Positions 1 to 59,545 of a stretch of 64,000 bases of DNA are shown piece by piece. The notes under the pieces are model-generated. The model saw nothing but the letters and a program-made list of their open reading frames with translations. It did no database searches and was not told the DNA's origin. A program made the translations under genes and the position numbers. Numbering within the stretch: the first letter of the stretch is position 1; each line of letters starts with the position of its first letter. Source of the stretch: Chitinophagales bacterium (GTDB lineage Bacteria > Bacteroidota > Bacteroidia > Chitinophagales > JAHQVX01); NCBI GenBank assembly GCA_965215685.1, contig OZ244113.1:2429652-2493651 (forward strand), given 5' to 3'.

Positions 1-1
1 A

Positions 2-8834: not shown

Positions 8835-8844
8835 AATGAAATGT

Positions 8845-13949: not shown

Positions 13950-13971
13950 ATTGATTTTAACCTACATCTTT

Positions 13972-15957: not shown

Positions 15958-16087
15958 TGTTTTCGCTGGCGAAAACATTCGTGTAATTCGTTGAATTCTC
16001 ATAAACAGAGATACAAAACGAGATGTCAAAATCTGAGTTGCCACATGTCTACTTAGCTTTCATAGTGCCACACTCTAATTCGTGGTT
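15958..16087. repeat. Rearranged copy of the ATTCGTG-type element (A3)
   Basis: GTTTTCGC-tg-GCGAAAAC hairpin followed by ATTCGTGtAATTCGTTG, ending ...CTCTAATTCGTGGTTTAAAAAAAA. Shares CTGAGTTGCCA with copy A1. Lies between the convergent TBDR and ldcA genes. Confidence 0.45.
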
Positions 16088-22437: not shown

Positions 22438-22553
22438 CGCACAATGTGTTTGTTTTGAAACAGATAGGCACATAGTTTCTCTTAACATGCTCAATAAACT
22501 TTATAAACTAATAACTCTGTAAACTGAAAATACCGAACTTCGCACCTTTGATT

Positions 22554-22677
22554 AAACATATAGGCATATAGTTTATTAAGTGACTAAACGGCATCTATCT
22601 ATGTACACTTTGTTAAACTGATATGAACTAAAATATTTAAGATTAAAAAGTGAATGCTGCTATGTTCCTATGTGGTT
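22554..22677. repeat. MITE-like 124-bp element, CTATGTG subfamily (D)
   Basis: Termini AAACATATAGgCATATAG ... CTATGTtcCTATGTGGTT (inverted, each a duplicated 7-8-mer). Ends 10 nt before the metG start. Confidence 0.55.
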
Positions 22678-24814: not shown

Positions 24815-24890
24815 AACTCTGTGAAACACTCTGCGTACTCTGTGGTTAAATAAAATGGAAAAACCGCAAAGTCGCCAAGCACGCAAAGGC
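24815..24890 (+). repeat. CTCTGTG-type stutter element (B1), right-end type only
   Basis: AACTCTGTGaaacACTCTGCGtACTCTGTGGTT followed by AAATAAAATGGAAAAACCGCAAAGTCGCC, which resembles the tail of 26493-26565. Confidence 0.5.
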
Positions 24891-26492: not shown

Positions 26493-26565
26493 CACTTTGT
26501 GTAACTCCGTGTTAAACTTTGTGTACTCTGTGGTTAATAAATAAGGGTAATCGTAAAGTCGCGAT
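26493..26565 (+). repeat. CTCTGTG-type stutter element (B2)
   Basis: CACTTTGTGtAACTCCGTGttAAACTTTGTGtACTCTGTGGTT followed by AATAAATAAGGGTAATCGTAAAGTCGCG. Confidence 0.5.
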
Positions 26566-32156: not shown

Positions 32157-32220
32157 TAATAGATCTTATGGTTGATTAGATGTCATCTTAACTGAAATCT
32201 TGCGCAAAAGTCATAAAAAA

Positions 32221-32244
32221 ACCCGAATCGAAGCCGATTCGGGT
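32221..32244 (-). terminator. Rho-independent terminator of the adhesin gene
   Basis: ACCCGAATCG-aagc-CGATTCGGGT with an A7 run on the plus strand just before it (a T-tract on the minus strand after the hairpin). Lies 21 nt downstream of the stop at 32265. Confidence 0.6.
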
Positions 32245-32264
32245 TTGTATTATTTTATTAATGG

Positions 32265-34848
32265 TTATCTAATTATTGCAAACCTTTCCGTATTTCCTCT
32301 CTTGCCGTCTGAGAGATGCACATAGTACATTCCTTCGGCCAAGCCAGCCATGTATAAGTTTTGCACATATTTAACACCTTTATTTAGATCGCGACTTTCA
32401 ATTGTTTTAACAACTCTGCCATGTGTGTCAAGAATTGTAATATCAAGTTGCGCCATATCATAATGCGGAATGAAACTTACTGTTCCATTTATTTGAATGG
32501 GATTAGGTGTTACCTTCAAATCAAGGAACATCTCTTCAGCAGGTTTGTCTTCTGCCAAAGTGATTCCTCCTGCACGTGTATGGTTCTCATTACATGTAAC
32601 TCCGTGAGCAATGATGTATATCTCATCACAGCCTAATTCAGAGACATCAACCGTTAAAGGGACACCATCTTCCAGACCACTAAACGGATACCGACCGGGA
32701 GCATTATTCTCATTACCGATCTGTAATGGCTCACACCCGATATACAGATGTGTTTCCGTCAGGCTATGTCCATCCGCCATGCTATAAGTCACTTCTACCT
32801 GGCCGTTGTCATATACAACATACAAGTCACCTACATAGGTATCGCTTGAAGCATTGCAATGGGCGGCTCCGGCATGTAGCTCCATGGTGTAATTGTCTTC
32901 AGTCAGCGGTCCGTTAGTCCAACCCCATTTATTGTTGGAAGCACCGGCATCAGTAAAGCAAGTGGCGTTGTCAGCCGACATAGCATATAATGTATCGCAA
33001 TCTTCTTCACAATCTTCATAACAAACTTTCTCACATATTACTCCATGAGTTATTATCCAAAGCGGATCGCAATCCAAAGATGTAACATCAATGGTGTAAG
33101 TATATGTTTGAACGCCGTCATGTGATTCTGAAGATGGATATTGACCTGGAGCTACAGTAGGTTTTCCTCTCTTTGTAGGATATTTATCACATCCAACATA
33201 TACATGACTTTCGGTGAGTACATAACCGTCAATTACTGAGTAAGTAACAACTACCTCATCTCCTTGATAACTCACCATTATATCACCAACATCCAATCCT
33301 TTATCCGTATCGCAAAGAGCAGCACCTGCATAAAGATCTAATGTATATGAACCACCTTCAGAGATTTGGTTTGTCCAACCCCATCGGTTAAACCCATCAT
33401 CAATGAAACAATCAGAATCATTACCGCCTAAAGCGAAGGCTGTTTCACAATCTACATATTCACATACTTCTTCACAGTCAGGATCAGGCTCACAATCACA
33501 AACTTCCTGACAGGTATTACCACCATGTACAATGATGTATAATTCTCCATTATTATCACAATTAAATTCAGATACATCAACAGTATAAGGCACACCATCT
33601 TCCAAACCACTATATGGATATTGACCCGGTGCCACAGTTGGTTTACCTTTTTTATTGGCAGGAATTGGACCACAGCCAATATAAAGATGTGTATCGCTAA
33701 TGGTAAATCCATCATTCATATTGTAGGTAACGGTTACTTCATCATCATGATAGGATACGGAAACCGTACCTGCCAGTTCACCTTTAGATGTATCACACTG
33801 TCCTGCACCGGCCCATACGTCGTAGGTATAATCGTTGCCTTCGATGATCTTGTTGGTCCAACCCCATCTGCTAAATCCGTATTCACTAAAGCATTCGCCG
33901 TCATCTCCTTTGGCAAAGGATGTTTCGCATTCGCCAATTTCACAGCAACGCTCAACTGTTATAGTTTGCGTGTGCTCAACTGGGTTACCGCATTCATCTT
34001 CGGCAGACCACGTTCGTGTTATCACTTTTTCGATAAATTCATCTTCTTCGCATGTGAATTCCATAATATCTTCAACGTATGTTACTTCTACATTATCATC
34101 ACAGTTATCATCGGCAGTAACAATTGGTGCAACCGGTATCTCCTGATCACATTCAACAGTAATGTCTCCGGGTGTTTCGCTTAAGACCGGTGCTGTTTCA
34201 TCGTAGTATCTGGTAACTTTTACTGTTACTTCTTCTGCTGCATTTCCACATTCGTCATCTACATTAAATGTATAGATACGGTATTGACTACAACCGTCGT
34301 CACCGTTCATGATCGGACCGCTTACCCCTGTAATGGTACCTCCGCCTGAGCAGTTGTCAGTCCAGGTAGTGGTAGGAGCTGCCGGCCAATCTTGATTACA
34401 AACCGTAATGTTCACATCATCTAGTGGAGTGATTTCCGGTGCTGTTTCATCGTAGTATCTGGTAACTTTTACTGTTACTTCTTCTGCTGCATTTCCACAT
34501 TCGTCATCTACATTAAATGTATAGATACGGTATTGACTACAACCGTCGTCACCGTTCATGATCGGACCGCTTACCCCTGTAATGGTACCTCCGCCTGAGC
34601 AGTTGTCAGTCCAGGTAGTGGTAGGAGCTGCCGGCCAATCTTGATTACAAACCGTAATGTTCACATCATCTAGTGGAGTGATTTCCGGTGCTGTTTCATC
34701 GTAGTATCTGGTAACTTTTACTGTTACTTCTTCTGCTGCATTTCCACATTCGTCATCTACATTAAATGTATAGATACGGTATTGACTACAACCGTCGTCA
34801 CCGTTCATGATCGGACCGCTTACCCCTGTAATGGTACCTCCGCCTGAG
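32265..34848 (-). CDS. C-terminal portion of a giant HYR-like repeat adhesin: 2.65 repeat units, one divergent HYR-like domain, three Cys-rich ~150-aa domains, and a T9SS C-terminal sorting domain. No own start or signal peptide.
   Basis: The frame is open up to the junction at 34848 (track ORF 32265..34808 begins at an internal Met). The C-terminus KVTPNPIQINGTVSF...GMYYVHLSDGKRGNTERFAIIR is a typical T9SS type A sorting domain. Confidence 0.7.
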
Positions 34849-37800
34849 ATGCAGCAGAAGAAGTAACAGTAAAAGTTACCAGATACTACGATGAAACAGC
34901 ACCGGAAATCACTCCACTAGATGATGTGAACATTACGGTTTGTAATCAAGATTGGCCGGCAGCTCCTACCACTACCTGGACTGACAACTGCTCAGGCGGA
35001 GGTACCATTACAGGGGTAAGCGGTCCGATCATGAACGGTGACGACGGATGTAGTCAATACCGTATCTATACATTTAATGTAGATGACGAATGTGGAAATG
35101 CAGCAGAAGAAGTAACAGTAAAAGTTACCAGATACTACGATGAAACAGCACCGGAAATCACTCCACTAGATGATGTGAACATTACGGTTTGTAATCAAGA
35201 TTGGCCGGCAGCTCCTACCACTACCTGGACTGACAACTGCTCAGGCGGAGGTACCATTACAGGGGTAAGCGGTCCGATCATGAACGGTGATGACGGATGT
35301 AGTCAATACCGTATCTATACATTTAATGTAGATGACGAATGTGGAAATGCAGCAGAAGAAGTAACAGTAAAAGTTACCAGATACTACGATGAAACAGCAC
35401 CGGAAATCACTCCACTAGATGATGTGAACATTACGGTTTGTAATCAAGATTGGCCGGCAGCTCCTACCACTACCTGGACTGACAACTGCTCAGGCGGAGG
35501 TACCATTACAGGGGTAAGCGGTCCGATCATGAACGGTGATGACGGATGTAGTCAATACCGTATCTATACATTTAATGTAGATGACGAATGTGGAAATGCA
35601 GCAGAAGAAGTAACAGTAAAAGTTACCAGATACTACGATGAAACAGCACCGGAAATCACTCCACTAGATGATGTGAACATTACGGTTTGTAATCAAGATT
35701 GGCCGGCAGCTCCTACCACTACCTGGACTGACAACTGCTCAGGCGGAGGTACCATTACAGGGGTAAGCGGTCCGATCATGAACGGTGATGACGGATGTAG
35801 TCAATACCGTATCTATACATTTAATGTAGATGACGAATGTGGAAATGCAGCAGAAGAAGTAACAGTAAAAGTTACCAGATACTACGATGAAACAGCACCG
35901 GAAATCACTCCACTAGATGATGTGAACATTACGGTTTGTAATCAAGATTGGCCGGCAGCTCCTACCACTACCTGGACTGACAACTGCTCAGGCGGAGGTA
36001 CCATTACAGGGGTAAGCGGTCCGATCATGAACGGTGATGACGGATGTAGTCAATACCGTATCTATACATTTAATGTAGATGACGAATGTGGAAATGCAGC
36101 AGAAGAAGTAACAGTAAAAGTTACCAGATACTACGATGAAACAGCACCGGAAATCACTCCACTAGATGATGTGAACATTACGGTTTGTAATCAAGATTGG
36201 CCGGCAGCTCCTACCACTACCTGGACTGACAACTGCTCAGGCGGAGGTACCATTACAGGGGTAAGCGGTCCGATCATGAACGGTGATGACGGATGTAGTC
36301 AATACCGTATCTATACATTTAATGTAGATGACGAATGTGGAAATGCAGCAGAAGAAGTAACAGTAAAAGTTACCAGATACTACGATGAAACAGCACCGGA
36401 AATCACTCCACTAGATGATGTGAACATTACGGTTTGTAATCAAGATTGGCCGGCAGCTCCTACCACTACCTGGACTGACAACTGCTCAGGCGGAGGTACC
36501 ATTACAGGGGTAAGCGGTCCGATCATGAACGGTGACGACGGATGTAGTCAATACCGTATCTATACATTTAATGTAGATGACGAATGTGGAAATGCAGCAG
36601 AAGAAGTAACAGTAAAAGTTACCAGATACTACGATGAAACAGCACCGGAAATCACTCCACTAGATGATGTGAACATTACGGTTTGTAATCAAGATTGGCC
36701 GGCAGCTCCTACCACTACCTGGACTGACAACTGCTCAGGCGGAGGTACCATTACAGGGGTAAGCGGTCCGATCATGAACGGTGACGACGGTTGTAGTCAA
36801 TACCGTATCTATACATTTAATGTAGATGACGAATGTGGAAATGCAGCAGAAGAAGTAACAGTAAAAGTTACCAGATACTACGATGAAACAGCACCGGAAA
36901 TCACTCCACTAGATGATGTGAACATTACGGTTTGTAATCAAGATTGGCCGGCAGCTCCTACCACTACCTGGACTGACAACTGCTCAGGCGGAGGTACCAT
37001 TACAGGGGTAAGCGGTCCGATCATGAACGGTGATGACGGATGTAGTCAATACCGTATCTATACATTTAATGTAGATGACGAATGTGGAAATGCAGCAGAA
37101 GAAGTAACAGTAAAAGTTACCAGATACTACGATGAAACAGCACCGGAAATCACTCCACTAGATGATGTGAACATTACGGTTTGTAATCAAGATTGGCCGG
37201 CAGCTCCTACCACTACCTGGACTGACAACTGCTCAGGCGGAGGTACCATTACAGGGGTAAGCGGTCCGATCATGAACGGTGATGACGGATGTAGTCAATA
37301 CCGTATCTATACATTTAATGTAGATGACGAATGTGGAAATGCAGCAGAAGAAGTAACAGTAAAAGTTACCAGATACTACGATGAAACAGCACCGGAAATC
37401 ACTCCACTAGATGATGTGAACATTACGGTTTGTAATCAAGATTGGCCGGCAGCTCCTACCACTACCTGGACTGACAACTGCTCAGGCGGAGGTACCATTA
37501 CAGGGGTAAGCGGTCCGATCATGAACGGTGACGACGGATGTAGTCAATACCGTATCTATACATTTAATGTAGATGACGAATGTGGAAATGCAGCAGAAGA
37601 AGTAACAGTAAAAGTTACCAGATACTACGATGAAACAGCACCGGAAATCACTCCACTAGATGATGTGAACATTACGGTTTGTAATCAAGATTGGCCGGCA
37701 GCTCCTACCACTACCTGGACTGACAACTGCTCAGGCGGAGGTACCATTACAGGGGTAAGCGGTCCGATCATGAACGGTGACGACGGTTGTAGTCAATACC

Positions 37801-39849
37801 GTATCTATACATTTAATGTAGATGACGAATGTGGAAATGCAGCAGAAGAAGTAACAGTAAAAGTTACCAGATACTACGATGAAACAGCACCGGAAATCAC
37901 TCCACTAGATGATGTGAACATTACGGTTTGTAATCAAGATTGGCCGGCAGCTCCTACCACTACCTGGACTGACAACTGCTCAGGCGGAGGTACCATTACA
38001 GGGGTAAGCGGTCCGATCATGAACGGTGATGACGGATGTAGTCAATACCGTATCTATACATTTAATGTAGATGACGAATGTGGAAATGCAGCAGAAGAAG
38101 TAACAGTAAAAGTTACCAGATACTACGATGAAACAGCACCGGAAATCACTCCACTAGATGATGTGAACATTACGGTTTGTAATCAAGATTGGCCGGCAGC
38201 TCCTACCACTACCTGGACTGACAACTGCTCAGGCGGAGGTACCATTACAGGGGTAAGCGGTCCGATCATGAACGGTGATGACGGATGTAGTCAATACCGT
38301 ATCTATACATTTAATGTAGATGACGAATGTGGAAATGCAGCAGAAGAAGTAACAGTAAAAGTTACCAGATACTACGATGAAACAGCACCGGAAATCACTC
38401 CACTAGATGATGTGAACATTACGGTTTGTAATCAAGATTGGCCGGCAGCTCCTACCACTACCTGGACTGACAACTGCTCAGGCGGAGGTACCATTACAGG
38501 GGTAAGCGGTCCGATCATGAACGGTGATGACGGATGTAGTCAATACCGTATCTATACATTTAATGTAGATGACGAATGTGGAAATGCAGCAGAAGAAGTA
38601 ACAGTAAAAGTTACCAGATACTACGATGAAACAGCACCGGAAATCACTCCACTAGATGATGTGAACATTACGGTTTGTAATCAAGATTGGCCGGCAGCTC
38701 CTACCACTACCTGGACTGACAACTGCTCAGGCGGAGGTACCATTACAGGGGTAAGCGGTCCGATCATGAACGGTGATGACGGATGTAGTCAATACCGTAT
38801 CTATACATTTAATGTAGATGACGAATGTGGAAATGCAGCAGAAGAAGTAACAGTAAAAGTTACCAGATACTACGATGAAACAGCACCGGAAATCACTCCA
38901 CTAGATGATGTGAACATTACGGTTTGTAATCAAGATTGGCCGGCAGCTCCTACCACTACCTGGACTGACAACTGCTCAGGCGGAGGTACCATTACAGGGG
39001 TAAGCGGTCCGATCATGAACGGTGATGACGGATGTAGTCAATACCGTATCTATACATTTAATGTAGATGACGAATGTGGAAATGCAGCAGAAGAAGTAAC
39101 AGTAAAAGTTACCAGATACTACGATGAAACAGCACCGGAAATCACTCCACTAGATGATGTGAACATTACGGTTTGTAATCAAGATTGGCCGGCAGCTCCT
39201 ACCACTACCTGGACTGACAACTGCTCAGGCGGAGGTACCATTACAGGGGTAAGCGGTCCGATCATGAACGGTGACGACGGATGTAGTCAATACCGTATCT
39301 ATACATTTAATGTAGATGACGAATGTGGAAATGCAGCAGAAGAAGTAACAGTAAAAGTTACCAGATACTACGATGAAACAGCACCGGAAATCACTCCACT
39401 AGATGATGTGAACATTACGGTTTGTAATCAAGATTGGCCGGCAGCTCCTACCACTACCTGGACTGACAACTGCTCAGGCGGAGGTACCATTACAGGGGTA
39501 AGCGGTCCGATCATGAACGGTGACGACGGTTGTAGTCAATACCGTATCTATACATTTAATGTAGATGACGAATGTGGAAATGCAGCAGAAGAAGTAACAG
39601 TAAAAGTTACCAGATACTACGATGAAACAGCACCGGAAATCACTCCACTAGATGATGTGAACATTACGGTTTGTAATCAAGATTGGCCGGCAGCTCCTAC
39701 CACTACCTGGACTGACAACTGCTCAGGCGGAGGTACCATTACAGGGGTAAGCGGTCCGATCATGAACGGTGACGACGGTTGTAGTCAATACCGTATCTAT
39801 ACATTTAATGTAGATGACGAATGTGGAAATGCAGCAGAAGAAGTAACAG
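34849..39849 (+). repeat. Inverted block of 20 x 249-bp near-identical units (+21 nt), coding sense on the plus strand
   Basis: GATGATGTGAAC recurs at 34920 + 249k (k=0..19). I found only two variable sites per unit. Sharp junctions at 34848|34849 and 39849|39850. Confidence 0.95.
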
Positions 39850-39902
39850 AGGTTGTGCTCAATGAAGTTGGCCAATCCTGGTTACAGTTAGGTAAAGTAT
39901 AG
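34926..39902 (+). CDS. Repeat-only ORF (20 HYR-like units) created by the inverted block; doubtful as an independent gene
   Basis: 1658-aa open frame with an in-frame TGA at 34845-47 immediately upstream. The first candidate start is GTG at 34926. No signal peptide and no sorting domain. The 3' end reads antisense into the N-terminal fragment. Confidence 0.35.
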   Translation: MNITVCNQDWPAAPTTTWTDNCSGGGTITGVSGPIMNGDDGCSQYRIYTFNVDDECGNAAEEVTVKVTRYYDETAPEITPLDDVNITVCNQDWPAAPTTTWTDNCSGGGTITGVSGPIMNGDDGCSQYRIYTFNVDDECGNAAEEVTVKVTRYYDETAPEITPLDDVNITVCNQDWPAAPTTTWTDNCSGGGTITGVSGPIMNGDDGCSQYRIYTFNVDDECGNAAEEVTVKVTRYYDETAPEITPLDDVNITVCNQDWPAAPTTTWTDNCSGGGTITGVSGPIMNGDDGCSQYRIYTFNVDDECGNAAEEVTVKVTRYYDETAPEITPLDDVNITVCNQDWPAAPTTTWTDNCSGGGTITGVSGPIMNGDDGCSQYRIYTFNVDDECGNAAEEVTVKVTRYYDETAPEITPLDDVNITVCNQDWPAAPTTTWTDNCSGGGTITGVSGPIMNGDDGCSQYRIYTFNVDDECGNAAEEVTVKVTRYYDETAPEITPLDDVNITVCNQDWPAAPTTTWTDNCSGGGTITGVSGPIMNGDDGCSQYRIYTFNVDDECGNAAEEVTVKVTRYYDETAPEITPLDDVNITVCNQDWPAAPTTTWTDNCSGGGTITGVSGPIMNGDDGCSQYRIYTFNVDDECGNAAEEVTVKVTRYYDETAPEITPLDDVNITVCNQDWPAAPTTTWTDNCSGGGTITGVSGPIMNGDDGCSQYRIYTFNVDDECGNAAEEVTVKVTRYYDETAPEITPLDDVNITVCNQDWPAAPTTTWTDNCSGGGTITGVSGPIMNGDDGCSQYRIYTFNVDDECGNAAEEVTVKVTRYYDETAPEITPLDDVNITVCNQDWPAAPTTTWTDNCSGGGTITGVSGPIMNGDDGCSQYRIYTFNVDDECGNAAEEVTVKVTRYYDETAPEITPLDDVNITVCNQDWPAAPTTTWTDNCSGGGTITGVSGPIMNGDDGCSQYRIYTFNVDDECGNAAEEVTVKVTRYYDETAPEITPLDDVNITVCNQDWPAAPTTTWTDNCSGGGTITGVSGPIMNGDDGCSQYRIYTFNVDDECGNAAEEVTVKVTRYYDETAPEITPLDDVNITVCNQDWPAAPTTTWTDNCSGGGTITGVSGPIMNGDDGCSQYRIYTFNVDDECGNAAEEVTVKVTRYYDETAPEITPLDDVNITVCNQDWPAAPTTTWTDNCSGGGTITGVSGPIMNGDDGCSQYRIYTFNVDDECGNAAEEVTVKVTRYYDETAPEITPLDDVNITVCNQDWPAAPTTTWTDNCSGGGTITGVSGPIMNGDDGCSQYRIYTFNVDDECGNAAEEVTVKVTRYYDETAPEITPLDDVNITVCNQDWPAAPTTTWTDNCSGGGTITGVSGPIMNGDDGCSQYRIYTFNVDDECGNAAEEVTVKVTRYYDETAPEITPLDDVNITVCNQDWPAAPTTTWTDNCSGGGTITGVSGPIMNGDDGCSQYRIYTFNVDDECGNAAEEVTVKVTRYYDETAPEITPLDDVNITVCNQDWPAAPTTTWTDNCSGGGTITGVSGPIMNGDDGCSQYRIYTFNVDDECGNAAEEVTVKVTRYYDETAPEITPLDDVNITVCNQDWPAAPTTTWTDNCSGGGTITGVSGPIMNGDDGCSQYRIYTFNVDDECGNAAEEVTEVVLNEVGQSWLQLGKV

Positions 39903-42546: not shown

Positions 42547-42739
42547 AACTTACTTTTTAATTTATTATTTAATTTCTTTTTCCTGATTTTGTAAAATCGG
42601 GCTGCGAAGATAATGGTTTTAATTATTAACCTTAGTTAGAATAATAATTATTAGGTTCAGATTTTTAACAAAATCTATAATTCCCCCTGAAATTAGGACA
42701 GTAAATTAAATTATACTTTAGAATTAAATTTATTGTCAA

Positions 42740-43015
42740 ATGAAGAGAAGAAAATTCACATCAGATTTCAAATTTAAGGTTGTATTGGAAGCCTTAAGTG
42801 AACGCTACAGTATTCAGGAGTTAGCACGTAAATATGAGATACATGCTACCCAGATCAGTAATTGGAAGACCCAGTTCATCATGAACGGGCAACATGTTTT
42901 TGATCGTCCGGCAAAGGATAAAAAGACCGAGGAACAAGAAAGGGAGGAAGCCTTGTTAAAAACCATTGGCCAACAGAAGGTTGAGATTGATTTTTTAAAA
43001 AAAGCCTTATCATGA
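42740..43015 (+). CDS. IS3-family transposase OrfA (HTH)
   Basis: 91 aa, MKRRKFTSDFKFKVVLEALSERYSIQELARKYEIHATQISNWK, with a leucine-zipper-like C-terminus. Confidence 0.85.
   Translation: MKRRKFTSDFKFKVVLEALSERYSIQELARKYEIHATQISNWKTQFIMNGQHVFDRPAKDKKTEEQEREEALLKTIGQQKVEIDFLKKALS
42997..43004 (+). promoter_or_regulatory. A7G slippery site for -1 programmed frameshift (OrfAB fusion)
   Basis: ttA AAA AAA Gcc in the orfA frame. A -1 slip reads KKSLIMKEDV..., which is the orfB frame (orfB is +2 relative to orfA). Confidence 0.6.
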
Positions 43016-43872
43016 AAGAGGATGTGCAACAGAGAAGAGCACATGTTGATAAGGCACACGAGCTTAGTGTTGTTAAGCAATCGGAGTTGTTAAGTATCCA
43101 TCGTAGCGGGCTTTATTACAAACCTGTGGGAGAAACAGTTTTAAATTTGGAGTTGATGCGTCTGATTGACCAACAGTATATGAAATATCCTTTTTTGGGT
43201 GTACCGCGAATGACAGCTTGGCTAAGAAAAGACAAGGGTTATAAGATCAACAAAAAGCGTGTTGAGCGACTTTACCGGTTGATGGGTATAAGTGCCATAG
43301 GGCCAAAGCCAAATACATCTAAAAGGGGCAAAGGCTCAGGACACCGGGTTTACCCATATCTATTAAGATCCTTAGATATTACTCACGCCAATCAGGTATG
43401 GGCAACAGACATCACATACATTCCTATACAGGGTGGTTATTTATATTTATGTGCCATTATAGATGTGTATAGCCGTTATGTGGTAGGTTGGTCTTTATCT
43501 AATACCATGACTTCGGCATGGTGCAAAGATGTGTTGCAAGAAGCTGTAAGCCAGCATGGTAAACCCCAAATACTCAATACCGACCAGGGCAGCCAGTTTA
43601 CAGCCATTGAATTTAGTAGCTGGGTTAGCGAACAGGATATACGTTTAAGTATGGATGGGAAAGGACGAGCCATTGATAACATATTTATTGAACGTTTATG
43701 GCGAAGTGTAAAATATGAGCAAATTTATCTTTACCCTGCAGACGATGGTTTGGAGTGTTACAACGGATTAGTTAAATATTTTACTTACTACAATTGTGAA
43801 AGGCGGCATCAAAGTTTACAAGATGAATGTCCGGTATATTTATACAAACAACGAAAGAAGCAAGTGGCATGA
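43012..43872 (+). CDS. IS3-family transposase OrfB (DDE integrase core)
   Basis: 286 aa with WATDITYIP, LNTDQGSQFTA and ERLWRSVKYE motifs. ATGA overlap with the orfA stop. Confidence 0.9.
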   Translation: MKEDVQQRRAHVDKAHELSVVKQSELLSIHRSGLYYKPVGETVLNLELMRLIDQQYMKYPFLGVPRMTAWLRKDKGYKINKKRVERLYRLMGISAIGPKPNTSKRGKGSGHRVYPYLLRSLDITHANQVWATDITYIPIQGGYLYLCAIIDVYSRYVVGWSLSNTMTSAWCKDVLQEAVSQHGKPQILNTDQGSQFTAIEFSSWVSEQDIRLSMDGKGRAIDNIFIERLWRSVKYEQIYLYPADDGLECYNGLVKYFTYYNCERRHQSLQDECPVYLYKQRKKQVA

Positions 43873-44198
43873 AAACGGCTTTACCACATTTCAACACTAT
43901 GGGTGGAAAAAAAGAATGGTTTTTCCATGTATTGAAATGTGGAAAAGCCTTCATGTCTCACTTAACTTTACATTTTTACTGTCCTAACGATGGGGGGAAT
44001 TATAGTATTGAAAATATCGCTTGGGTGACCCATTTACGGAAGTCAGGAAACTCTTGAATCTTCCTATTTTCAATCGTTCTAACCCCGAGATATTAGCCGA
44101 ACCCAGGTTAAACGTGAATAGTGGATAAGAAATTCCGTTTACGGAATTGTTTGTGTTATTCGTAATAAATTGTCCATAAATGCTTTAATGAATGTTTT

Positions 44199-44322
44199 AA
44201 CCACGAATTTGCTAACCATACCTGTATTTCTTAGAAACAATTATAAGCTAATAGTACCAATTTGGTTTCGCTCCGCGAAACTAATCATCAGTTCTGGAAG
44301 AAAAATTCGTGCATTCGTGGTT
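44199..44322. repeat. MITE-like 124-bp element, ATTCGTG subfamily (copy A2)
   Basis: AACCACGAAT...ATTCGTGcATTCGTGGTT (perfect 10-bp termini). Internal hairpin GTTTCGC-tcc-GCGAAAC at the same relative position as in A1. Confidence 0.6.
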
Positions 44323-44518
44323 ATCCCGAAACTTTGGGTTAACAACCAGAGAAGGAAAAGTAACGAGATATTGAATTATTTTGTATGTCCTTGTGGTTAT
44401 TTACATTTGTCTTCATAAGTCAATCGTTGTAAAACGGTCAACATGTTTGAGGGATGAACAACTCCCTAAATTCGAACTACGAACACCAAAAAGAAAACAC
44501 TATTTTCAAACGCATAAA

Positions 44519-47500
44519 ATGAACGCTAAAAATCATATTACAGGCTTTGTGCTTTTTTGTTTCCTAAGTATTTTTTCCATTCCGGAGCTTTCGGCCCAAC
44601 ATCAGTACCTGCAGGGGTATGAAGAAACGATAGCAGGAACAAACTTTACCTATCATTCTCCATTACCTGATGTGGACGCATCTTTGTTGGTAAGAGCGCG
44701 GGCAGATTACGAGCCCATCAGTTGGAGAACAGAAAAAATACCACAAAGCTGGAAAGGTGAACGCGTACAATTTATTTGGGTCTATGGCATAGACGTAAGT
44801 GCTAATACCGTAGCCTTTGATTTGCTTATCAACGGTGAAAAATGGCTTACGTTCACTAATCCGGCCACCAATGAGGCCGAGGAAATGTCCTTTCAGGGAA
44901 AACACGCATCTACACTTACGCTAAGAAAAAATATGGTGGACAAACATAAAGACCAAATGGGATTTGCCGTGCTTGATCTGCCTGTTGCACAGCTTAAAAA
45001 AGGCCGGCCCCTGAAATTAACGGTTGATGGCGGCGACCAAAACAGCAATTTATGGTTTATGACATACCGTACGGCGTTGCGTGAAAGTTCCTCGGTAGAA
45101 CAGAACAAAATAGCCGTAAAAAATAAAGACGGGTTAAACTATGTTGCCCGATTCCACTTTACCCATTTGGGAGAACCCACTACAGCCCAACTTAAAATAA
45201 ACAACAATCGGAAAAAAGTGATGTTGCAGCCGGGCCATAACAGCTTCGATTTGCTCCTGCCCGCCGTTAAAACGACCAAAAAATTAACGGCTGCAACAAA
45301 GGTCGGCAACAATAACTGGAAAGAACTGCCTCTTACCATTGCCCCTATAAAGGAATGGACAATTTACCTAGTACAGCATAGCCATACAGATATCGGTTAT
45401 ACCCGGCCGCAGACAGAAATTTTAGCTGATCATCTGCGGTACATTGATTATGCATTAGATTATTGCGATCAAACCGATAATTATCCTGAAGATGCTCAAT
45501 TCCGCTGGACCTGCGAAGCATCCTGGGCCGTGCGCGAATACCTTAAAAGCCGGCCTCAATCACAAATTGACCGTCTGCTTAAAAGAATTAAAGAAGGCCG
45601 GATAGAAGTAACAGGTATGTTTTTTAACTTCTCTGATGTGGTTAGCGAAGCAGCCCTGGCCCAACAAGTTCAACCCGTAAAGCGATTTAAGGAAAACGGT
45701 ATTGTAGTAGAAACCGCCATGCAAAACGATGTGAACGGTATCGGCTGGTCTATGATCGACTATTTTGCCCACACCGATGTAAAATACCTAACCATGGGTC
45801 AGCATGGCCATCGTGCGCGCATACCATTTGATAAGCCCACTTCTTTTTACTGGCAGTCAAAGGCCGGAAACCGACTATTGGCGTACCGAAGCGAGCATTA
45901 TATGCATGGTAATGCACTAAGCTTAACATCGGGATATATAGATGTGTTTAGAGATAATCTCATTCAGTATTTAAACAAATTGGAACGCAGAAAATATCCG
46001 TTCGATCGCACAGCCATACAATTCTCAGGTTATGTAACCGACAACTCTCCACCATCTACCCTGGCTTGCGACATTGTGAAAGAATGGAATGAAAAATATG
46101 AATGGCCAAAACTTAAACTAACCCTTGCCAGTGAGTTTATGCGCTTTGTAAATACCCACAAGGCAAACCAACTACCAGTTAAACAAGTGGCCTGGCCAGA
46201 TTGGTGGACAGATGGTTTTGGCTCTGCAATGAATGAAACCAAGGCCGCAAGAAACACAAGTGCCAACCTGGTAACCACGTCAGGGCTACAGGCCATGGCA
46301 AGGCTTTTGGGTAATACATTGCCCGAAAATTCTGTAGCCGATATCAGCTCCTGTTATGATAATTTATTGTTTTATTCTGAACATACTTTCGGATCAAGTG
46401 AAAGCATCAGTGACCCAATGTCGGAAAGCACAACACTGCAGTGGAATGAAAAAGCGGCTTATGTATGGACGGCACGTAAGCAGGAAGGTATTTTACGCGA
46501 GAAAATATTAGGCGTATTGCAATCAAACATAAATAAGCAAAATGTTCCAACGCTTACCGTTTTCAATACCTTAAGCCGTAAAAGATCGGGTTTTCTCACC
46601 AGTTACATTGTACATAGAACATTACCGCCTGGCTATGCCTTTACTATTACTGATTCAGAAGGCAAGGAGGCTAAAGCATATCCGGTACTTAGTCATAGTG
46701 ATGGAACTTACTGGATGATTTATGCGGAAGATGTGCCAGCTTTCGGCTTTAAATCGTACCGAATTAATGTACAGAAAAAACAGGCAGATAATAAAACTAT
46801 AACATCCAAAGCTAATGTGTTGGAAAACAGATTTTACAGAATTGAAATTGACGAAGATAATGGTGGTATATCCTCGTTAATTGATAAGGAATTAGACCAT
46901 GAGTTATTGGATAAAGACGCTGAACATAACCTGGGGCAACTTATTTATGAAGAAATAAGGTCTCGAAGAGATTTGGAACGGCTTACAAATTCAAACCGCG
47001 ATACAACGTATAGAGAAATTGACAGAAAATGGACGTTATTAAAAGATGTTGAAATTGTGCAACATGAGAAGAATGACATTTTTGACGGCTTATTAATTAA
47101 AGGCCGGTTAGACAATTGTGTTGATGAACGCGGAATTGAAATAAATATTAAACTATTTCATTCTCAAAAACGCATTACCTTAAACTACTCTATGAATAAG
47201 CTGGAGAACACATCTCCAGAGGCTTTGTATGTTGCCTTTCCGTTTCATGTGAAAAATGGTTCTTTATCTTTTGATGTGCAGGGCGGAAGTATTGAGCCGG
47301 GAGTGGATCAACTTGAAGGCACTGCGCACGACTGGAATACCATACAAACCTTTGCAGCCGTGCAAAACGATGAGGAACAAATTCTGTTTTCATCGGTAGA
47401 TGTGCCTTTAGTGCAGTTTGGAGCCATAAATACAGGCAGGTTTTACTACAAACACAGGCCCCAAACAAACCATATTTATTCATGGGTGCTGAACAATTAC

Positions 47501-47926
47501 TGGACTACAAATTTCAAGGCGAGCCAAAGTGGGGGCATGAAGTGGACATATACCCTGACATCAGGAAAAAAAGACCATAAAGTAACTCCCGAAAACTTTG
47601 GATTAGAAAACTACGTTCCGCTGGCAGCAAGGGTGCTTCCGGCAGGCACGGGTATTAACGAACCACTATCACAGGTATCGTTACTTCCCGAAATGCCCGA
47701 TAACGTATTATTGGTAAATGCAACCGCTACCCCTAAAGGCGATGTAATACTGCAACTGAGGGAAAGTCGGGGAGGGCAGGCAAACGTAGATTTTACGCCG
47801 GCAGGTACAAATACCCATTGGTATATAAGCGAAGTAAATGTAATAGGTGAGCCTTTGCGCGAAAATATCACTTCCTTAAGCTTAGATCATTTTGAAACTA
47901 AGTTTATTAAAATTACTATGAAGTAG
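44519..47926 (+). CDS. Glycoside hydrolase family 38-like protein (alpha-mannosidase-related), secreted
   Basis: The track ORF starts at 44381 within repeat-derived sequence. Met at 44519 gives the signal peptide MNAKNHITGFVLFCFLSIFSIPELSAQ. LVQHSHTDIGYT resembles the GH38 N-terminal metal site. Confidence 0.65.
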   Translation: MNAKNHITGFVLFCFLSIFSIPELSAQHQYLQGYEETIAGTNFTYHSPLPDVDASLLVRARADYEPISWRTEKIPQSWKGERVQFIWVYGIDVSANTVAFDLLINGEKWLTFTNPATNEAEEMSFQGKHASTLTLRKNMVDKHKDQMGFAVLDLPVAQLKKGRPLKLTVDGGDQNSNLWFMTYRTALRESSSVEQNKIAVKNKDGLNYVARFHFTHLGEPTTAQLKINNNRKKVMLQPGHNSFDLLLPAVKTTKKLTAATKVGNNNWKELPLTIAPIKEWTIYLVQHSHTDIGYTRPQTEILADHLRYIDYALDYCDQTDNYPEDAQFRWTCEASWAVREYLKSRPQSQIDRLLKRIKEGRIEVTGMFFNFSDVVSEAALAQQVQPVKRFKENGIVVETAMQNDVNGIGWSMIDYFAHTDVKYLTMGQHGHRARIPFDKPTSFYWQSKAGNRLLAYRSEHYMHGNALSLTSGYIDVFRDNLIQYLNKLERRKYPFDRTAIQFSGYVTDNSPPSTLACDIVKEWNEKYEWPKLKLTLASEFMRFVNTHKANQLPVKQVAWPDWWTDGFGSAMNETKAARNTSANLVTTSGLQAMARLLGNTLPENSVADISSCYDNLLFYSEHTFGSSESISDPMSESTTLQWNEKAAYVWTARKQEGILREKILGVLQSNINKQNVPTLTVFNTLSRKRSGFLTSYIVHRTLPPGYAFTITDSEGKEAKAYPVLSHSDGTYWMIYAEDVPAFGFKSYRINVQKKQADNKTITSKANVLENRFYRIEIDEDNGGISSLIDKELDHELLDKDAEHNLGQLIYEEIRSRRDLERLTNSNRDTTYREIDRKWTLLKDVEIVQHEKNDIFDGLLIKGRLDNCVDERGIEINIKLFHSQKRITLNYSMNKLENTSPEALYVAFPFHVKNGSLSFDVQGGSIEPGVDQLEGTAHDWNTIQTFAAVQNDEEQILFSSVDVPLVQFGAINTGRFYYKHRPQTNHIYSWVLNNYWTTNFKASQSGGMKWTYTLTSGKKDHKVTPENFGLENYVPLAARVLPAGTGINEPLSQVSLLPEMPDNVLLVNATATPKGDVILQLRESRGGQANVDFTPAGTNTHWYISEVNVIGEPLRENITSLSLDHFETKFIKITMK

Positions 47927-49890: not shown

Positions 49891-50646
49891 GGTGAAGCCT
49901 GGCTCAGGGTGACGTTGCGTCAACATTGCTAATCGTATCGGAATCTTCGTCATGGTGGGCTTGCCGAACCATGAGTCTTGTTAACGGTATTGATCTCTTC
50001 GTCATGGTGAGCTTGACGAACCATGAGACCTACACTATAGAACAATGCAACACAAGTATCACCCTTCGTCAAGCTCAGGGTGACGTTGCGTCAACATTGC
50101 TAATCGTATCGACATGGTCGTCATGGTGAGCTTGACGAACCATGAGTCCTGTTAACTGTATTGATCTCTTCGTCATGGTGAGCCCGCCTGATTGACTTAG
50201 TCGGGCAGGCTTGACGAACCATGAGACCTACACTATAGAACAATGCAACACAAGTATCACCCTTCGTCAAGCTCAGGGTGACGTTGCGTCAACATTGCTA
50301 ATCGTATCGGAATCTTCGTCATGGTGGGCTTGCCGAACCATGAGTCTTGTTAACGGTATTGATCTCTTCGTCATGGTGAGCTTGACGAACCATGAGACCT
50401 ACACTATAGAACAATGCAACACAAGTATCACCCTTCACTTCGGCTTCGCTCAGTGCAGGCTGGCTCAGGGTGACGTCGTGTCAACATTGCTAATCGTATC
50501 GGAATCTTCGTCATGGTGAGCTTGACGAACCATGAGTCCTGTTAACTGTATTGATCTCTTCGTCATGGTGAGCCCGCCTGATTGACTTAGTCGGGCAGGC
50601 TTGACGAACCATGAAACCTACCCTTCGTCAAGCTCGGGGTGACGTA
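49891..50646 (+). repeat. BIME-like mosaic of palindromic units (about 4 composite units of 169-198 bp)
   Basis: GCTCAGGGTGACGttgCGTCA heads at 49902, 50073, 50271, 50463 and 50632. Hairpin unit TCATGGT-gagcttgacga-ACCATGA occurs twice per composite. Two copies carry a nested 27-nt insertion (50172-50224 and 50562-50614). Confidence 0.85.
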
Positions 50647-50739
50647 TTATTGGCTAAAGCCAAAAAGTTGAAAGAAAAAATCAACATGTTTTTTTGGTAT
50701 CTTTCTTGAGTAGATTAGAGAAAGAAAACGAGAAAATCA

Positions 50740-53425: not shown

Positions 53426-56400
53426 CTATTGAAAATAACGCACCCCATTTTCAAAAAGTGCCTGGTACTTATTGCCCGGAATGTTCTTGTAACAGTTTAA
53501 TCCGTACCGTTCTCCATGGCCCATTTTACCAAATATTTTACCCGTTGGATCGGTAATTCCTTCAATGGCAAAGTAGCTGCCGTTAGGGTTGTGTGGTCTT
53601 TCAAGGGTTGGGTTGCCAGCATGGTTAACATATTGTGTAGCCACCTGCCCATTCTCGAAAAGCTCTTTGGCCAGTTTTTCACTAACGATGAACCTGCCCT
53701 CTCCATGAGAAATAGCAATATCGTGCATTTCTCCAATTTCAAAACCGGCAAGCCAGGGAGAAGTGTTGCTAACCACTTTGGTTTTCACGATCTGGGAAAT
53801 ATGACGACCAATTTCATTATGAGTTAGAGTGGGAGAGTGCTCATCTACTTCACCAATTTTTCCAAATGGTAGTAGTCCGCTTTTTACCAATGCCTGAAAA
53901 CCATTGCAAACTCCAAGGATCAAACCATCACGCTCCAACAATCGATAGATCGAATCCTTTATTCTTTCATTGCGCAATACGGCCGTTATAAACTTCCCGC
54001 TTCCATCCGGCTCATCACCGGCGGAGAAACCCCCTGGAATCATAAATATTTGACTGTTGTCAATGGCTTGTGCTAAAGATGTTATTGATTCCTTAATATG
54101 GTCTTTGGTCAGGTTTCTGAAAACATTGAACTCCACTTTCGCACCTGCCCGTTCAAAGGCCAGTTTGCTCTCGTATTCACAGTTCGTGCCGGGGAATACG
54201 GCTATAGTCACCTTTGGATTGGGATTTCGAATTTGGCCTCCCTTGTGGGCATTCGCCGACATTTCCTCCACAATGTGGGAGGAAGAGTATCCCTCCTTAT
54301 TAAAGTGGGCTCCTTTCCCCCCCTGCCAAGGGTGGGATGTCCGGAGGACAGGGGGGGAAGTCGGAAATATCTCCTCCAAACCTCCCTGCCACACCGTTAG
54401 TGCTTTTTCACCATCTATTTTTTCATCGTCTATAATGAATGAAAACGCTTCGGTTGTAATGCCAATTTTAGCGAGGTTTTCATGTTGTAATTGTTCCCTG
54501 CTTTCAAATACTATGGCACCATAATCCCTTTCAAACCAATTCCATTCTCCCTGAACGGCAAAACCAATCTTATTGCCGAAAGCCATTTGTGAAAGGGTTT
54601 GAGCCAGTCCGCCTGTTTTAATGGATGCTCCGCTCAATATTTTACCTTCTTTCACCCAATTGTAATATTGACTGAAATTTTCTTTCAGAGTTGAATTATC
54701 CGGCATACCATTTTCAAGCGGAACATGCTGTAGAAGATAGATGTAACTACCGGGTTGTTTAAATTCTGCCGAAACCGCTTTTTCAGTATCAATAGTAGTG
54801 ACGGCAAATGAAATTAAGGTTGGCGGTACATGAATGTCATTAAAGGTGCCACTCATGCTATCCTTTCCACCAATAGCTGCAATGTTAAAAGCATCTTGTA
54901 CATATAATGTGCCCAGGAATGCCTGGAACGGCAAGGCCCAATTCTTCGGGTCTCTGCCCAACTTTTTAAAATACTCCTGGAAACTTAAACGAACCTTAGA
55001 AACATCACCACCCATTGCTACTATTTTGGCCAGTGATTCAATTACGGAATAAGCTCCTCCATGAAAAGGTGACCAGCTACTTAATTCGGGATCGAAGCCC
55101 CAGGTCATGGCACTGGCAGTAGTTGTATCGCCCTCTTCAACGGGGATTTTTTGCAGGCTGCCTTCCTGCGGACTTAGCTGGTACTTTCCGCCAAAAGGCA
55201 TAAATACTGTGGTGCCGCCAACTGTGCCATCAAACATTTCATGCAAGCCTTGTTGAGAGCAGTGGTTGAGGTGGGAGAGTTGGGTGAGCCATTTGTTCCT
55301 TGATACTATTGCTTCACTTTCTTGAGCAGGAGTATTAGAAGATTGACCCCCCTCGGCCTTCGGCCACTCCCCCCTTGATAAGGGGGGAGACTCTCCCCCC
55401 CTGTCAAGGGGGGGATGTCCCGATGCTAATCGGGACAGGGGGGGTACTTCAACACTCGCCTCCTGCCGTACCCCATTGCTATCCAAAAACTTCCTGTCAA
55501 GATCAACAATGATTTTTCCCCGCCAATGCATAACCAGTCTATTGGTATCTGTTACCTCGGCAATTGGCGTGCATTCCAGGTTTTCTTCGTCAGCGAGGTC
55601 TTTAAATTTTCTGACATCACCTGCTTCCACAACAACAGCCATTCGTTCCTGGCTTTCACTTAATGCGATCTCTGTTCCATTTAGACCTAAATACTTCAAT
55701 GGAACTTTGTCCAGATTGATCTGCAAGCCATCGGCCAATTCTCCAACAGCCACGCTTACTCCTCCGGCACCAAAGTCATTACATTTTTTAATGAGTTTGA
55801 GTGCTTCGGGGTTTCTGAAAAGCCGTTGGATCTTTCTTTCTTCCGGGGCATTACCTTTTTGCACTTCGGCTCCGGCAGTAGTTAGAGATTCCTCGGTATG
55901 TTCCTTTGATGATCCGGTTGCTCCGCCCACTCCGTCACGGCCTGTTCGTCCGCCAACTAGCAGAACTACATCACCTGCCACCGGACTTTCTCGTCTAACG
56001 TATTCTTCTTTGACTGCACCCACTACCGCACCAACTTCCATGCGTTTGGCTTTGTAACCATTGTGGTAGATCTCTGAGATCTGTGTTCCGGCCACACCAA
56101 TTTGATTGCCGTAGCTGGAGAAACCATGTGCAGCTTCGGTGGTTATTTTTCTCTGGGGAAGTTTTCCCGGTAAGGTGTCTTCCACTGTCTCAAACGGATT
56201 GGCACAGCCCGTTACCCGAACTGCCTGATACACATATGCTCTTCCGCTTAAAGGGTCTCTAATGGCACCACCGAGACAGGTACTGGCTCCACCAAAAGGC
56301 TCTATCTCGGTAGGATGGTTGTGTGTTTCATTTTTAAACATAAGCAGCCAGGGTTCCTGCGTTCCATCTGTTTTTAACACATTTATTCTTACACTGCAGG

Positions 56401-59138: not shown

Positions 59139-59295
59139 GGGTGGCAAAGTTAATCGCCGGTTAGAATTTTCTGCGACTCAAAGCTGAAAATGACAAATGA
59201 TTTACAATGTAAAAGGCCTGTCTTAAAGAGAAAATTTTCCAAGAATCGTTAGAATGAGCCAGCCGCTAATTTAACAGCATAGAAGTAGATGTAGC

Positions 59296-59545
59296 CTTAC
59301 ATGCCCTTATATACCTTATGTGGTTCAAAAATAATTTAACCATATAAGTTCATATAAGGCTGTTCATATAAGCACATATAAGCGGTGTTCCACTCTTCGG
59401 CATGCTCTGAGCTCTACGCTTCCCGATTATACGAAGCAAGCGATTGAGAAAGATATACCAACCCTTACATGCCCTTATGTGGTTTCAAAAACAATGCACT
59501 ACTAGCCCTATAAGTTCATATAAGCACATAAAAGCACTGCTCAAA
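59296..59545 (+). repeat. CTTATGTG-type elements (C): right tip, one full 147-bp copy (59338-59484), partial left end
   Basis: About 90% identical by eye to 57466-57660. The full copy runs AACCATATAAGttCATATAAG...CATGCCCTTATGTGGTT. Confidence 0.7.

Follow-up and report, generated by a model that had tools for sequence, protein, structure and literature searches.

Stutter hairpins in intergenic DNA of Bacteroidota and other phyla: possible REP/BIME-like palindromic mosaics

Between the genes of a 64-kb stretch of a Chitinophagales chromosome (contig OZ244113.1, positions 2,429,652 to 2,493,651; hereafter the window) lie several elements of 123-147 bp with inverted ends in which a short unit is repeated in tandem, or stutters. 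One of them, designated A2, is found at 44199-44322 (all element positions being coordinates within the window), and the question it raises is what kind of repeat keeps two stuttering ends matched to each other. An earlier note on this DNA had described the elements as MITE-like (miniature inverted-repeat transposable elements), with a mobilising enzyme, and had proposed that their two ends either pair or are copied from each other. The latter proposal has stood up well. In place of the former, we propose that the elements are palindromic mosaics resembling repetitive extragenic palindromic (REP) sequences and bacterial interspersed mosaic elements (BIMEs), assembled from stutter modules and kept symmetric by pairing, rather than MITEs derived from a transposon; we regard this as an even call.

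The building block is a module of two to four copies of a 7-10-nt unit in which a pyrimidine-rich stretch is followed by GTG, the module closing in GTGG(TT); read on the other strand, CCAC is followed by units of CAC plus purines. Units of the pyrimidine strand include ATTCGTG, CTCTGTG, CTATGTG, CTTATGTG and GTCTTGN, and by our own reading of these a single theme appears to run through the window and the related loci, with CAC plus purines in the 5' arm and M-T-N-Y-G-T-G in the 3' arm. Two like modules in the order 5'-CCAC...GTGG-3' close a hairpin, which is either compact (about 45-55 bp, the usual form outside the window) or encloses other sequence including a smaller hairpin, as in the 123-147-bp window elements. 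A module may also stand alone, and modules form tandem arrays or nest in layers like an onion. The conserved closure is CCAC...GTGG, and not the AACCA...TGGTT that had been taken for the outermost one.

To find related loci, species-representative genomes (596 Gb) were scanned with the A-type right arm ATTCGTGNATTCGTGGTT, which gave at least 114 loci (L001-L114). Some of these matches are noise, since we calculate that 17 fixed bases should match about 70 times by chance in 596 Gb; matches inside genes of Woeseiaceae or Bacillus are examples. At dozens of loci an inverted partner lies 20-50 nt upstream, giving the hairpin CCACGAAT-N-CACGAAT / loop / ATTCGTG-N'-ATTCGTGG. Such A-type hairpins are present in isolates of the Flavobacteriia (Flavobacterium, Aequorivita and Chryseobacterium), in metagenome-assembled genomes (MAGs) of Chitinophagaceae, Cytophagaceae, Saprospiraceae and Bacteroidales, in several independent MAGs of Anaerolineae/Chloroflexota, where there are three units per arm and tandem arrays, and in Chloracidobacterium as well. 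Intergenic DNA held 145 of the 163 arm matches among those listed, and the arms were ordered CCAC 5'/GTGG 3' in 64 hairpins and the reverse in 6-7. Stutter hairpins are apparently a widespread class of intergenic repeat in Bacteroidota and Chloroflexota that has been undescribed so far; when the literature was searched for the motif, no paper was found that prints it, and keyword searches led to neighbouring topics only. In 2.9 million viral contigs the compact hairpin did not occur and the single arm occurred once. That one match (L195, 7640-7740, IMGVR_UViG_3300024996_000021) consists of three direct 39-bp units, each ATTCGTGCATTCGTGG(T/C)TAATCTTCTTCCTTTTTT, in an iteron-like layout without an inverted partner.

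The arms of these hairpins stay matched because they base-pair, as the covariation between them shows. An alignment was made of 47 distinct A-type hairpins from many genomes, comprising the arms and 6-nt flanks, in which 84.7% of cells were paired. The covariation score was 0.152 as against 0.100 for shuffled alignments; none of 500 shuffles reached it, and slid registers all scored far lower. At the N/N' position, three Watson-Crick types were represented (U-A in 24, G-C in 8 and A-U in 7 hairpins), with G-U or U-G in 3 and no pair in 5. This, together with the compensated changes described below, supports the proposal of pairing, or of copying, between the two ends. Pairing extended at least 2 nt beyond CCAC/GTGG into the variable flanks, where A-U, G-C, C-G and G-U types were seen, and the TTAA-like contexts previously remarked on at the termini are therefore the palindrome continuing into the flank and not target duplications. 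A strand asymmetry was also observed within the window: nine of the ten element-borne GTGGTT hexamers are on the + strand, and this holds at the C loci too, where the genes run on the - strand; the partner arms show C-to-T differences on the + strand (AACTAC, AACCAT, AAACAT). In this small sample, the asymmetry looks like an effect at the level of DNA rather than tolerance of wobble in mRNA.

How the hairpins change over short times can be seen in a series of close strains. A LexA/XRE-family gene lies beside a compact hairpin in F. anhuiense (L045), and from it 80 orthologous Flavobacterium loci were collected from metagenomes. In strains 91-100% identical in the LexA/XRE protein, the spacer to the convergent downstream gene holds an onion of nested stutter hairpins with, from the inside out, an A-type core (CACGAAT), CACAGAT units and CACAAAG/CGCTAAG units. 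Even strains with 98% identity in this protein have different sets of arms, unit numbers and nested layers at one such spacer: L115 retains the right arms of both outer layers and has lost the left ones, in L116 the outer layer alone remains, and L129, L133 and L137 have a different hairpin family at the same spacer. Orthologous hairpins have two or three units, always equal in number on both arms, and a homologous loop. Compensated substitutions (CCACAAAT with ATTTGTGG) were found in L147 and L148, and uncompensated intermediates in L125 and L130. Orthologues below 85% identity are without hairpins. The element is retained at orthologous sites of three Aequorivita-like and four Anaerolineales genomes, where the arms are conserved and the interiors have diverged. 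MITEs that move by cut and paste do not behave in this way, staying in place with fuzzy edges while arms, units and layers are gained and lost.

Some individual stutter arms are interrupted by foreign hairpins of 18-22 nt, such as GCTCCCGAAGTGTCGGGA and TCACGATAGCTATCGGGATG; this was observed in L079 (the left arm of an element ending at 6618 on the - strand), in L020, and in L130 and L147 (outer left arm). These insertions are reminiscent of the very small mobile repeats of Nostoc. The small dispersed repeats (SDRs) that Elhai and colleagues reportedly described there in 2008 are modules of about 20-27 nt which are said to come and go between relatives without target duplication, often within hairpin-forming repeats. 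The likeness lies in the small insertions, and the sequences and the phylum are different.

Both the number of hairpins and the folding of the window elements exceed what is expected by chance. In 851 kb made up of the window and related loci, 345 hairpins with stems of at least 13 bp were counted, compared with 65 in shuffled sequence, and those carrying an internal stutter numbered 75 compared with 0. About half of these 75 are not A-type and are mostly of period 8 (7+1), for example TAGGATTN, TGTTGAAT, CTAAGATG, CTCTGTGT and TATAAGCGA; the presence of other 7+1-period units in the same genomes bears out the earlier idea of a superfamily. The termini are predicted to pair in all five long elements of the window (A1, A2, D, C1 and C2), those of A1 in both the minimum-energy and the centroid structure and those of C2 through 11 terminal pairs, and the fold z-scores are -3.89, -3.61, -1.72, -1.96 and -2.06, respectively. 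The inner hairpin GTTTCGC-N3/4-GCGAAAC of A1 and A2 occurs twice, with 0 occurrences expected, and 10 of the 12 GTGGTT hexamers in intergenic DNA of the window fall in elements. A cruder scan for AAC...GTT ends, in which 13 or more of 18 bases had to be complementary, found 6 matches against a shuffle mean of 3.0, which is not significant; being uninformative, it was replaced by the fold z-scores, the inner-hairpin count and the census of stutter hairpins. Rfam gave no match at gathering thresholds, and none overlapping the elements at E values up to 5.

The long elements of the window, A1, A2, D and the C copies, have paired arms of 7-10-nt units and lie where the earlier note had placed them. 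A2 (124 bp) starts with the left end AACCACGAAT, in which the left arm from 44199 (AACCACGAATTTGC) has one unit only and cannot be called a stutter as it had been, followed by the inner hairpin at 44265-44281 (GTTTCGCtccGCGAAAC) and a right arm at 44305-44322 (ATTCGTGCATTCGTGGTT). A1 (224-346, 123 bp), a long A-type element 44 kb away, has its left arm at 224-241 (AACTACGAATTTGCGAAT), its inner hairpin at 289-306 (GTTTCGCtgaaGCGAAAC) and its right arm, identical to that of A2, at 329-346. The alignment of the two shows three common modules at conserved spacing, namely a 14-16-nt left end with the same AATTTGC deviation, the inner hairpin, and an identical 24-nt right end; both have C at N, and the filler between the modules is unrelated. 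Element D (22554-22677) has the ends AAACATATAGGCATATAG ... CTATGTTCCTATGTGGTT, with the left arm at 22554-22571 (AAACATATAGgCATATAG) and the right arm at 22660-22677 (CTATGTtcCTATGTGGTT).

The C copies sit in arrays. At the first locus, a partial copy with a variant interior and the right arm CCCTTACATGCCCTTATGTGCCTTATGTGGTT (C0, 57385-57493) is followed by a 19-nt spacer, TCAAAAACAATGCAAAACT, and then by the full copy C1 (57513-57660), whose left arm has four CATATAAG units and whose right-arm tip is damaged, reading GTGCCTTT without the TGGTT that had been ascribed to it. At the second, a right arm only (CCTTACATGCCCTTATATACCTTATGTGGTT, 59295-59325, + strand) lies 12 nt upstream of the full copy C2 (59338-59484, AACCATATAAGttCATATAAG... 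...CCCTTACATGCCCTTATGTGGTT), and a left arm only (AGCCCTATAAGttCATATAAGcaCATAAAAGC, 59504-59535, + strand) is preceded by the same 19-nt spacer. Since both arrays have this junction spacer, TCAAAAACAATGCA(A/C)(A/T)ACT, in common, the copied C unit is not bounded by the arms. C1 and C2, 1.8 kb apart, are about 93% identical in alignment including their interiors, the similarity beginning at TAACCA. The description of the interiors as unrelated is thus correct for A1 and A2 and incorrect for C1 and C2.

Evidence for copying was also found outside the window. A composite repeat of 120-165 bp is spread over several contigs of one Chitinophagaceae MAG, and the A-type arm is one module among others in it. 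At five Chitinophagaceae MAG loci (L003, L025, L074, L095 and L100), the A-type arm is followed 15-30 nt later by CAACTTCCCCCTTCGGGGGATTGAGGGGGC, and stutters of CTCTGCG or CTTTGTG and a purine-rich block, ATAATAAGAAAGTAAAAATAAGGAATAAGGAAGTGG, often come before it. To judge from its sequence, this arrangement looks like a composite mosaic repeat.

The family of repeats that these elements most resemble is that of REPs, BIMEs and REPINs (paired REPs forming hairpins). Like them (PMC3733652, PMC3116915, PMC6006769), the stutter hairpins are short palindromes lying between genes, more than one sequence family being present in a genome, and occur as singletons, as inverted pairs that form long hairpins and as mosaic clusters; they are likewise enriched at gene 3' ends, are retained at orthologous sites despite turnover and have no internal transposase. 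A REP variant with the tetranucleotide foot GTGG is recognised, and GTGG is also found in the stutter hairpins. There are differences as well: the stutter hairpins reverse the "double-foot" order of REPs, the REP-like order GTGG...CCAC being rare here, their stems are built of tandem 7-10-nt units with nested layers, one stem is common to several phyla whereas REP families are usually lineage-specific, and they have so far been linked to no REP-associated tyrosine transposase (RAYT). Quentin et al. (PMC6006769) describe a RAYT subclass, 2.6, mostly of Bacteroidetes, that is flanked by "atypical" hairpins without GTAG, and the arms in their supplementary table (CGCGAAT..TTCGCGTGG in F. indicum, CACGGATT..AATCCGCG in F. 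johnsoniae and GTGGTCTGTG..CACAGACCAC in C. hutchinsonii) look like single stutter units; those exact repeats were not found in the examined loci.

The observations described so far show the structure, distribution, covariation and turnover of the elements, which persist at gene 3' flanks, turn over fast in place and are now and then copied to new spacers. For the copying mechanism, the trans factor and the cellular role, we infer the following. The number of units on one arm would shift by slippage, and the second arm would follow, either through selection for pairing or by template switching within the palindrome; besides pairing itself, arm-to-arm copying probably helps to maintain the symmetry. 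The conservation of a 16-bp stem across phyla and the strong preference for CCAC 5'/GTGG 3' argue for a sequence-specific factor acting on a folded, strand-symmetric hairpin. The hairpin is probably recognised in its folded form by a conserved factor, for which a domesticated enzyme of the HUH/RAYT type would be a candidate. The role of the elements would likely be structural, at intergenic 3' ends, as has been proposed for REPs, and not canonical intrinsic termination.

Several observations weigh against classing the elements as REP/BIME-like mosaics. The elements lack the foot that defines REPs, a 5' GT[AG]G or CGTC that is left unpaired, the GTGG seen here being 3' and paired with CCAC, and the stems are AT-rich, unlike those of REPs. 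An HUH/Y1 motif scan of the window and of loci L001-L114 found no RAYT, and REPs of the RAYT-2.6 type (GCTAG-CGCGAGC...) are absent from the examined loci. The derived quirks common to A1 and A2, the C1/C2 pair and the dispersed Chitinophagaceae family all call for some process that copies elements to new sites, and this process could be transposition. Furthermore, the function of the elements is one that we infer entirely.

A further proposal, which we put forward tentatively and think more apt to fail than to hold, is that the hairpins are the visible half of a REP-like replicator system with a conserved trans-acting enzyme, spread across Bacteroidota, Chloroflexota and Acidobacteriota. What the enzyme recognises would be the folded hairpin CCAC-(CAC+purine)n / (pyrimidine+GTG)n-GTGG, to which it would add units or in which it would copy them, and within hairpins already present it would start further layers; it might belong to RAYT subclass 2.6 or to TnpA-Y1 subclass 1.2, known from cyanobacteria and Bacteroidetes. 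If true, such a system would explain why distant phyla have an identical stem, why the order of the arms is fixed and why hairpins nest like an onion.

Could the hairpins instead be structures at the 3' ends of host transcripts? As bidirectional terminators or mRNA-stabilising hairpins they would evolve in place, the stutter being a by-product of slippage and the arms kept complementary solely by selection for RNA folding. The gene context favours this explanation, with hairpins frequent in convergent and tandem spacers and depleted in divergent ones (26, 24 and 4 hairpins, respectively), and no window element occupies a divergent spacer. Many compact forms in Aequorivita consist of an A-run, a hairpin and a T-run, with the base of the stem richer in GC beside the T's, and every close Flavobacterium strain that retains the convergent gene pair has some hairpin at the spacer, which one varying. 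The likeness to Rho-independent terminators, which also lie between gene ends, ends at the window copies: these have long loops and no T tail, their tails reading TTAAAAAA, TTATCCC, TTAGAG and TTTCAAAAA, and a terminator scan picked none of them, whereas canonical terminators do exist at other places in the genome, for example at 32219-32246. In Flavobacterium copies a T-run precedes the hairpin and an A-run follows it. If RNA folding alone kept the arms complementary, mismatches would be expected to favour G.U over A.C on the sense strand, but the ratio was 39:39 in a sample that includes overlapping registers and orthologous copies, and at the C loci the mRNA strand would carry its mismatches as A.C. 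Nor did the solo arms of tandem-gene spacers show a bias (15 sense, 16 antisense). Finally, it is the sequence of the stem that is conserved and not its structure alone, and transcript ends leave both the identical 16-bp stem in several phyla and the 10:1 arm order unexplained. We therefore consider it unlikely that the elements are transcript 3'-end structures and nothing else.

The transposon explanation fares somewhat worse, and we consider it quite improbable. MITEs derived from insertion sequences (ISs), such as Correia/NEMIS of Neisseria and Nezha of cyanobacteria, resemble the window elements in being 100-150 bp long, intergenic and multicopy with inverted termini, and Correia is without a known transposase. 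By this account the elements would be non-autonomous transposons whose stuttered ends each offer several sites to be bound by a transposase from another part of the genome; the transposase might target TA or TTAA, so that a palindromic duplication would be mistaken for an extension of the inverted repeat. Such a history would suit the near-identity of C1 and C2 over 147 bp from TAACCA, the length class and derived left-arm features that A1 and A2 have in common over 44 kb, the 120-165-bp family dispersed in one Chitinophagaceae MAG and the T/A that flanks the window elements (TAAC...GTTA). Compact hairpins, however, are flanked by AA/TT, AG/CT, CG/CG or TG/CA and not by TA, and these variable flanks are inverted-complementary; the target-site duplications that were looked for are absent. 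Boundaries vary too, with arms single, arrayed or nested and the unit number changing, and the junction spacer common to the C arrays does not fit a mobile unit bounded by its arms. The 80 orthologous Flavobacterium spacers differ by arm, layer and unit number and not by a whole element. No cognate IS was found: ORF (open reading frame) clustering revealed no protein family recurrent beside the at least 114 loci, and since the 64 kb contain more than one unit family, unrelated to each other, several transposases would be required. As regards dispersed copies of uniform length and sequence, A1 and A2 have modules and length but not filler in common, C1 and C2 are about 93% identical but lie 1.8 kb apart in arrays, and the Chitinophagaceae family is dispersed. 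The view of the elements as MITE-like with a mobilising enzyme is not supported: no target-site duplication, fixed boundary or recurrent neighbouring transposase was found.

It is highly improbable that the stutters serve as arrayed binding sites of a protein (iteron-like sites or those of a regulator), with the inverted pairs being incidental. The direct single-arm arrays of Kordia (L012 and L037) and of the viral contig, with its three 39-bp units, have this appearance, and different taxa have the unit sequence in common. The units, however, are irregularly spaced (7, 8, 9, 10, 12 or 14 nt), with the commonest period, 8, off the helical repeat; several unit families adjoin one another; and the N/N' covariation and compensated changes show that it is pairing that is conserved. 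Structure-specific recombination sites like the attC sites of integrons, which are also imperfect palindromes (57-147 bp) with ends ..TAAC/GTTA.. and arms that covary though their sequence differs, are effectively refuted by gene context, since the neighbours are large housekeeping genes (metG, purL, uvrC, dnaX, pyruvate carboxylase) and not cassettes, the window has no integrase, and the same-arm boxes are direct repeats in strand-symmetric elements and not an inverted R''/L'' pair.

Some other candidates were also set aside. For a DnaA box, TGTGGTTAA differs from TGTGGATAA at a conserved position, and the A-type differs more. Chi and KOPS (FtsK-orienting polar sequences) were dropped since the motif is not found in genes, the DNA uptake sequences DUS and USS (uptake signal sequence) because the motif is almost purely intergenic, and response-regulator sites because of the irregular spacing.

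Besides the paired elements, the window contains modules with one arm only, and B, E and A3 are of this kind, as had been claimed. About 80 nt upstream of D is a solo left-arm-like stutter, CAGATAGgCACATAG (22461-22475, + strand, read in the spacer); the right end of D itself is 9 nt upstream of the start codon of metG, whose product was assigned as methionyl-tRNA synthetase (MetRS) by Pfam. Downstream of metG is B1 (ACTCTGTGaaacACTCTGCGtACTCTGTGGTT, 24816-24847, + strand), for which the spacer was searched and no inverted partner found, and downstream of the ORF at 24996-26456 is B2 (ACTTTGTGtaACTCCGTGttaaACTTTGTGtACTCTGTGGTT, 26494-26535, + strand), which Tandem Repeats Finder reports at 26494-26537. 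A3 (15959-16087, + strand) lies between the convergent genes 13903-15951 (+) and 16113-17012 (-) and consists of a small hairpin, GTTTTCGCtggCGAAAAC (15959-15976), then ATTCGTGtaATTCGT (15977-15991) and, about 85 nt after 15991, a terminal ATTCGTGGTT at 16078-16087; its ATTCGTG units are in direct and not inverted orientation. E (457-507, + strand) is a pure heptamer array, (TTGAGTC)x7, that degenerates to GTCTTGG TTCTTGG and has no inverted partner; Tandem Repeats Finder gives period 7 and 7.1 copies. The arms of types A to D have two to four units with spacers of 1-6 nt, and E alone is an array of uninterrupted tandem heptamers.

E and the arrays in L007, L021 and L085 are of the kind known from other heptamer repeats. 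STRRs are short tandemly repeated heptamers of heterocystous cyanobacteria. Repeats of the heptamer TAACTGA occur in Beggiatoaceae, Cyanobacteria and Bacteroidetes as long direct arrays just upstream of start codons (PMC4679880). Both form long direct arrays, and they share with the stutter arrays an intergenic location, tandem heptamers and a patchy distribution across phyla; in contrast, the stutter arrays mostly have two to four units with spacers, end in GTGG and are paired with an inverted copy.

The window is part of a Bacteroidota chromosome of about 41% G+C that encodes proteins with type IX secretion system (T9SS) tails and a CHU_C domain. Its genes include metG, uvrC, purL, dnaX, pyruvate carboxylase, a carotenoid cluster and rpsF-rpsR-rplI, and the next relative of its MetRS, 70% identical, is from a Saprospiraceae MAG. 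An IS3-family element at about 42688-44003 (orfA 42740-43015, orfB 43012-43872, terminal inverted repeats ATAATTCCCCC...TAGGACAGTAAA) lies between the rpsF operon and A2, which starts about 195 nt past its right inverted repeat. As a source of the stutter arms the IS3 ends were rejected, the two being unrelated. At the left edge, positions 1-205 (+) are the 3' end of an IS1595-family transposase ORF (NCBIfam NF033547, last 27 model positions, E = 2.8e-6), for which no terminal repeat can be identified because only the last 205 nt of the gene fall inside the window and the left end of the copy lies outside it; A1 begins 19 nt after its stop codon. Both A1 and A2 therefore adjoin IS elements, on the downstream side. 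There are no other transposases in the 64 kb, and no matching end was found for either of these two. Downstream of A2 is a GH38 gene, annotated as a TTG-started ORF (44381-47926), just inside which is a further right-arm-like sequence, GTATGTCCTTGTGGTTA (44385-44400). The annotated start may be too far upstream, since the GH38 domain begins only at residue 327.

Repeats of other kinds were also observed in the window. A 662-nt inverted repeat, 99% identical (34187-35652 and 34849-39849), covers the 5' parts of two divergent repeat-protein genes, one at 32265-34808 (-) with a T9SS tail and one at 34926-39902 (+) with about 20 copies of a 249-bp unit at 99% identity; this could be an inversion or recombination site or an assembly problem. 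Two intergenic tandem arrays, at 8844-9600 and 50011-50650, with periods of 197/198 bp, are made of small GC-rich hairpins. In the former these are GAACCCTGAAAGGGTTC, CGACCCCTTCGGGGTCG and ATCCCTTCGGGAT; in the latter, CGTCATGGTGAGCTTGACGAACCATGAG is paired with GTATCACCCTTCGTCAAGCTCAGGGTGACG and begins CGTC like CGTC-tagged REPs, a hairpin type resembling those of Flavobacterium loci L129, L133 and L142. Within purL (53426-57298, -), a cluster of G/C-run hairpins at 55340-55445 (CCCCCCTTGATAAGGGGGG, CCCCCCCTGTCAAGGGGGGG and GTCCCGATGCTAATCGGGAC), in frame and encoding PPLSRLASGHPPLDRGGESPPLSRGEWPKAEGG, looks from its sequence like an intragenic repeat insertion. ARAGORN calls a tRNA-Asp at 55370-55444 on the strand opposite purL, probably a false positive caused by the cluster.

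REPs, STRRs, SDRs and other small repeats of intergenic DNA are abundant and, outside Proteobacteria, poorly understood. The stutter hairpins offer a bait, in the form of a 16-bp stem with a covarying spacer that is common to several phyla, and close strains that form natural series, with arms, units and layers gained and lost between them. These bring two questions within reach of a test: by what enzyme, if by any, such repeats are maintained in Bacteroidota and Chloroflexota, and how palindromes keep their arms matched. The elements also confound gene-start calls and predictors of tRNAs and small RNAs, and they mark hypervariable spacers that are usable for strain typing.

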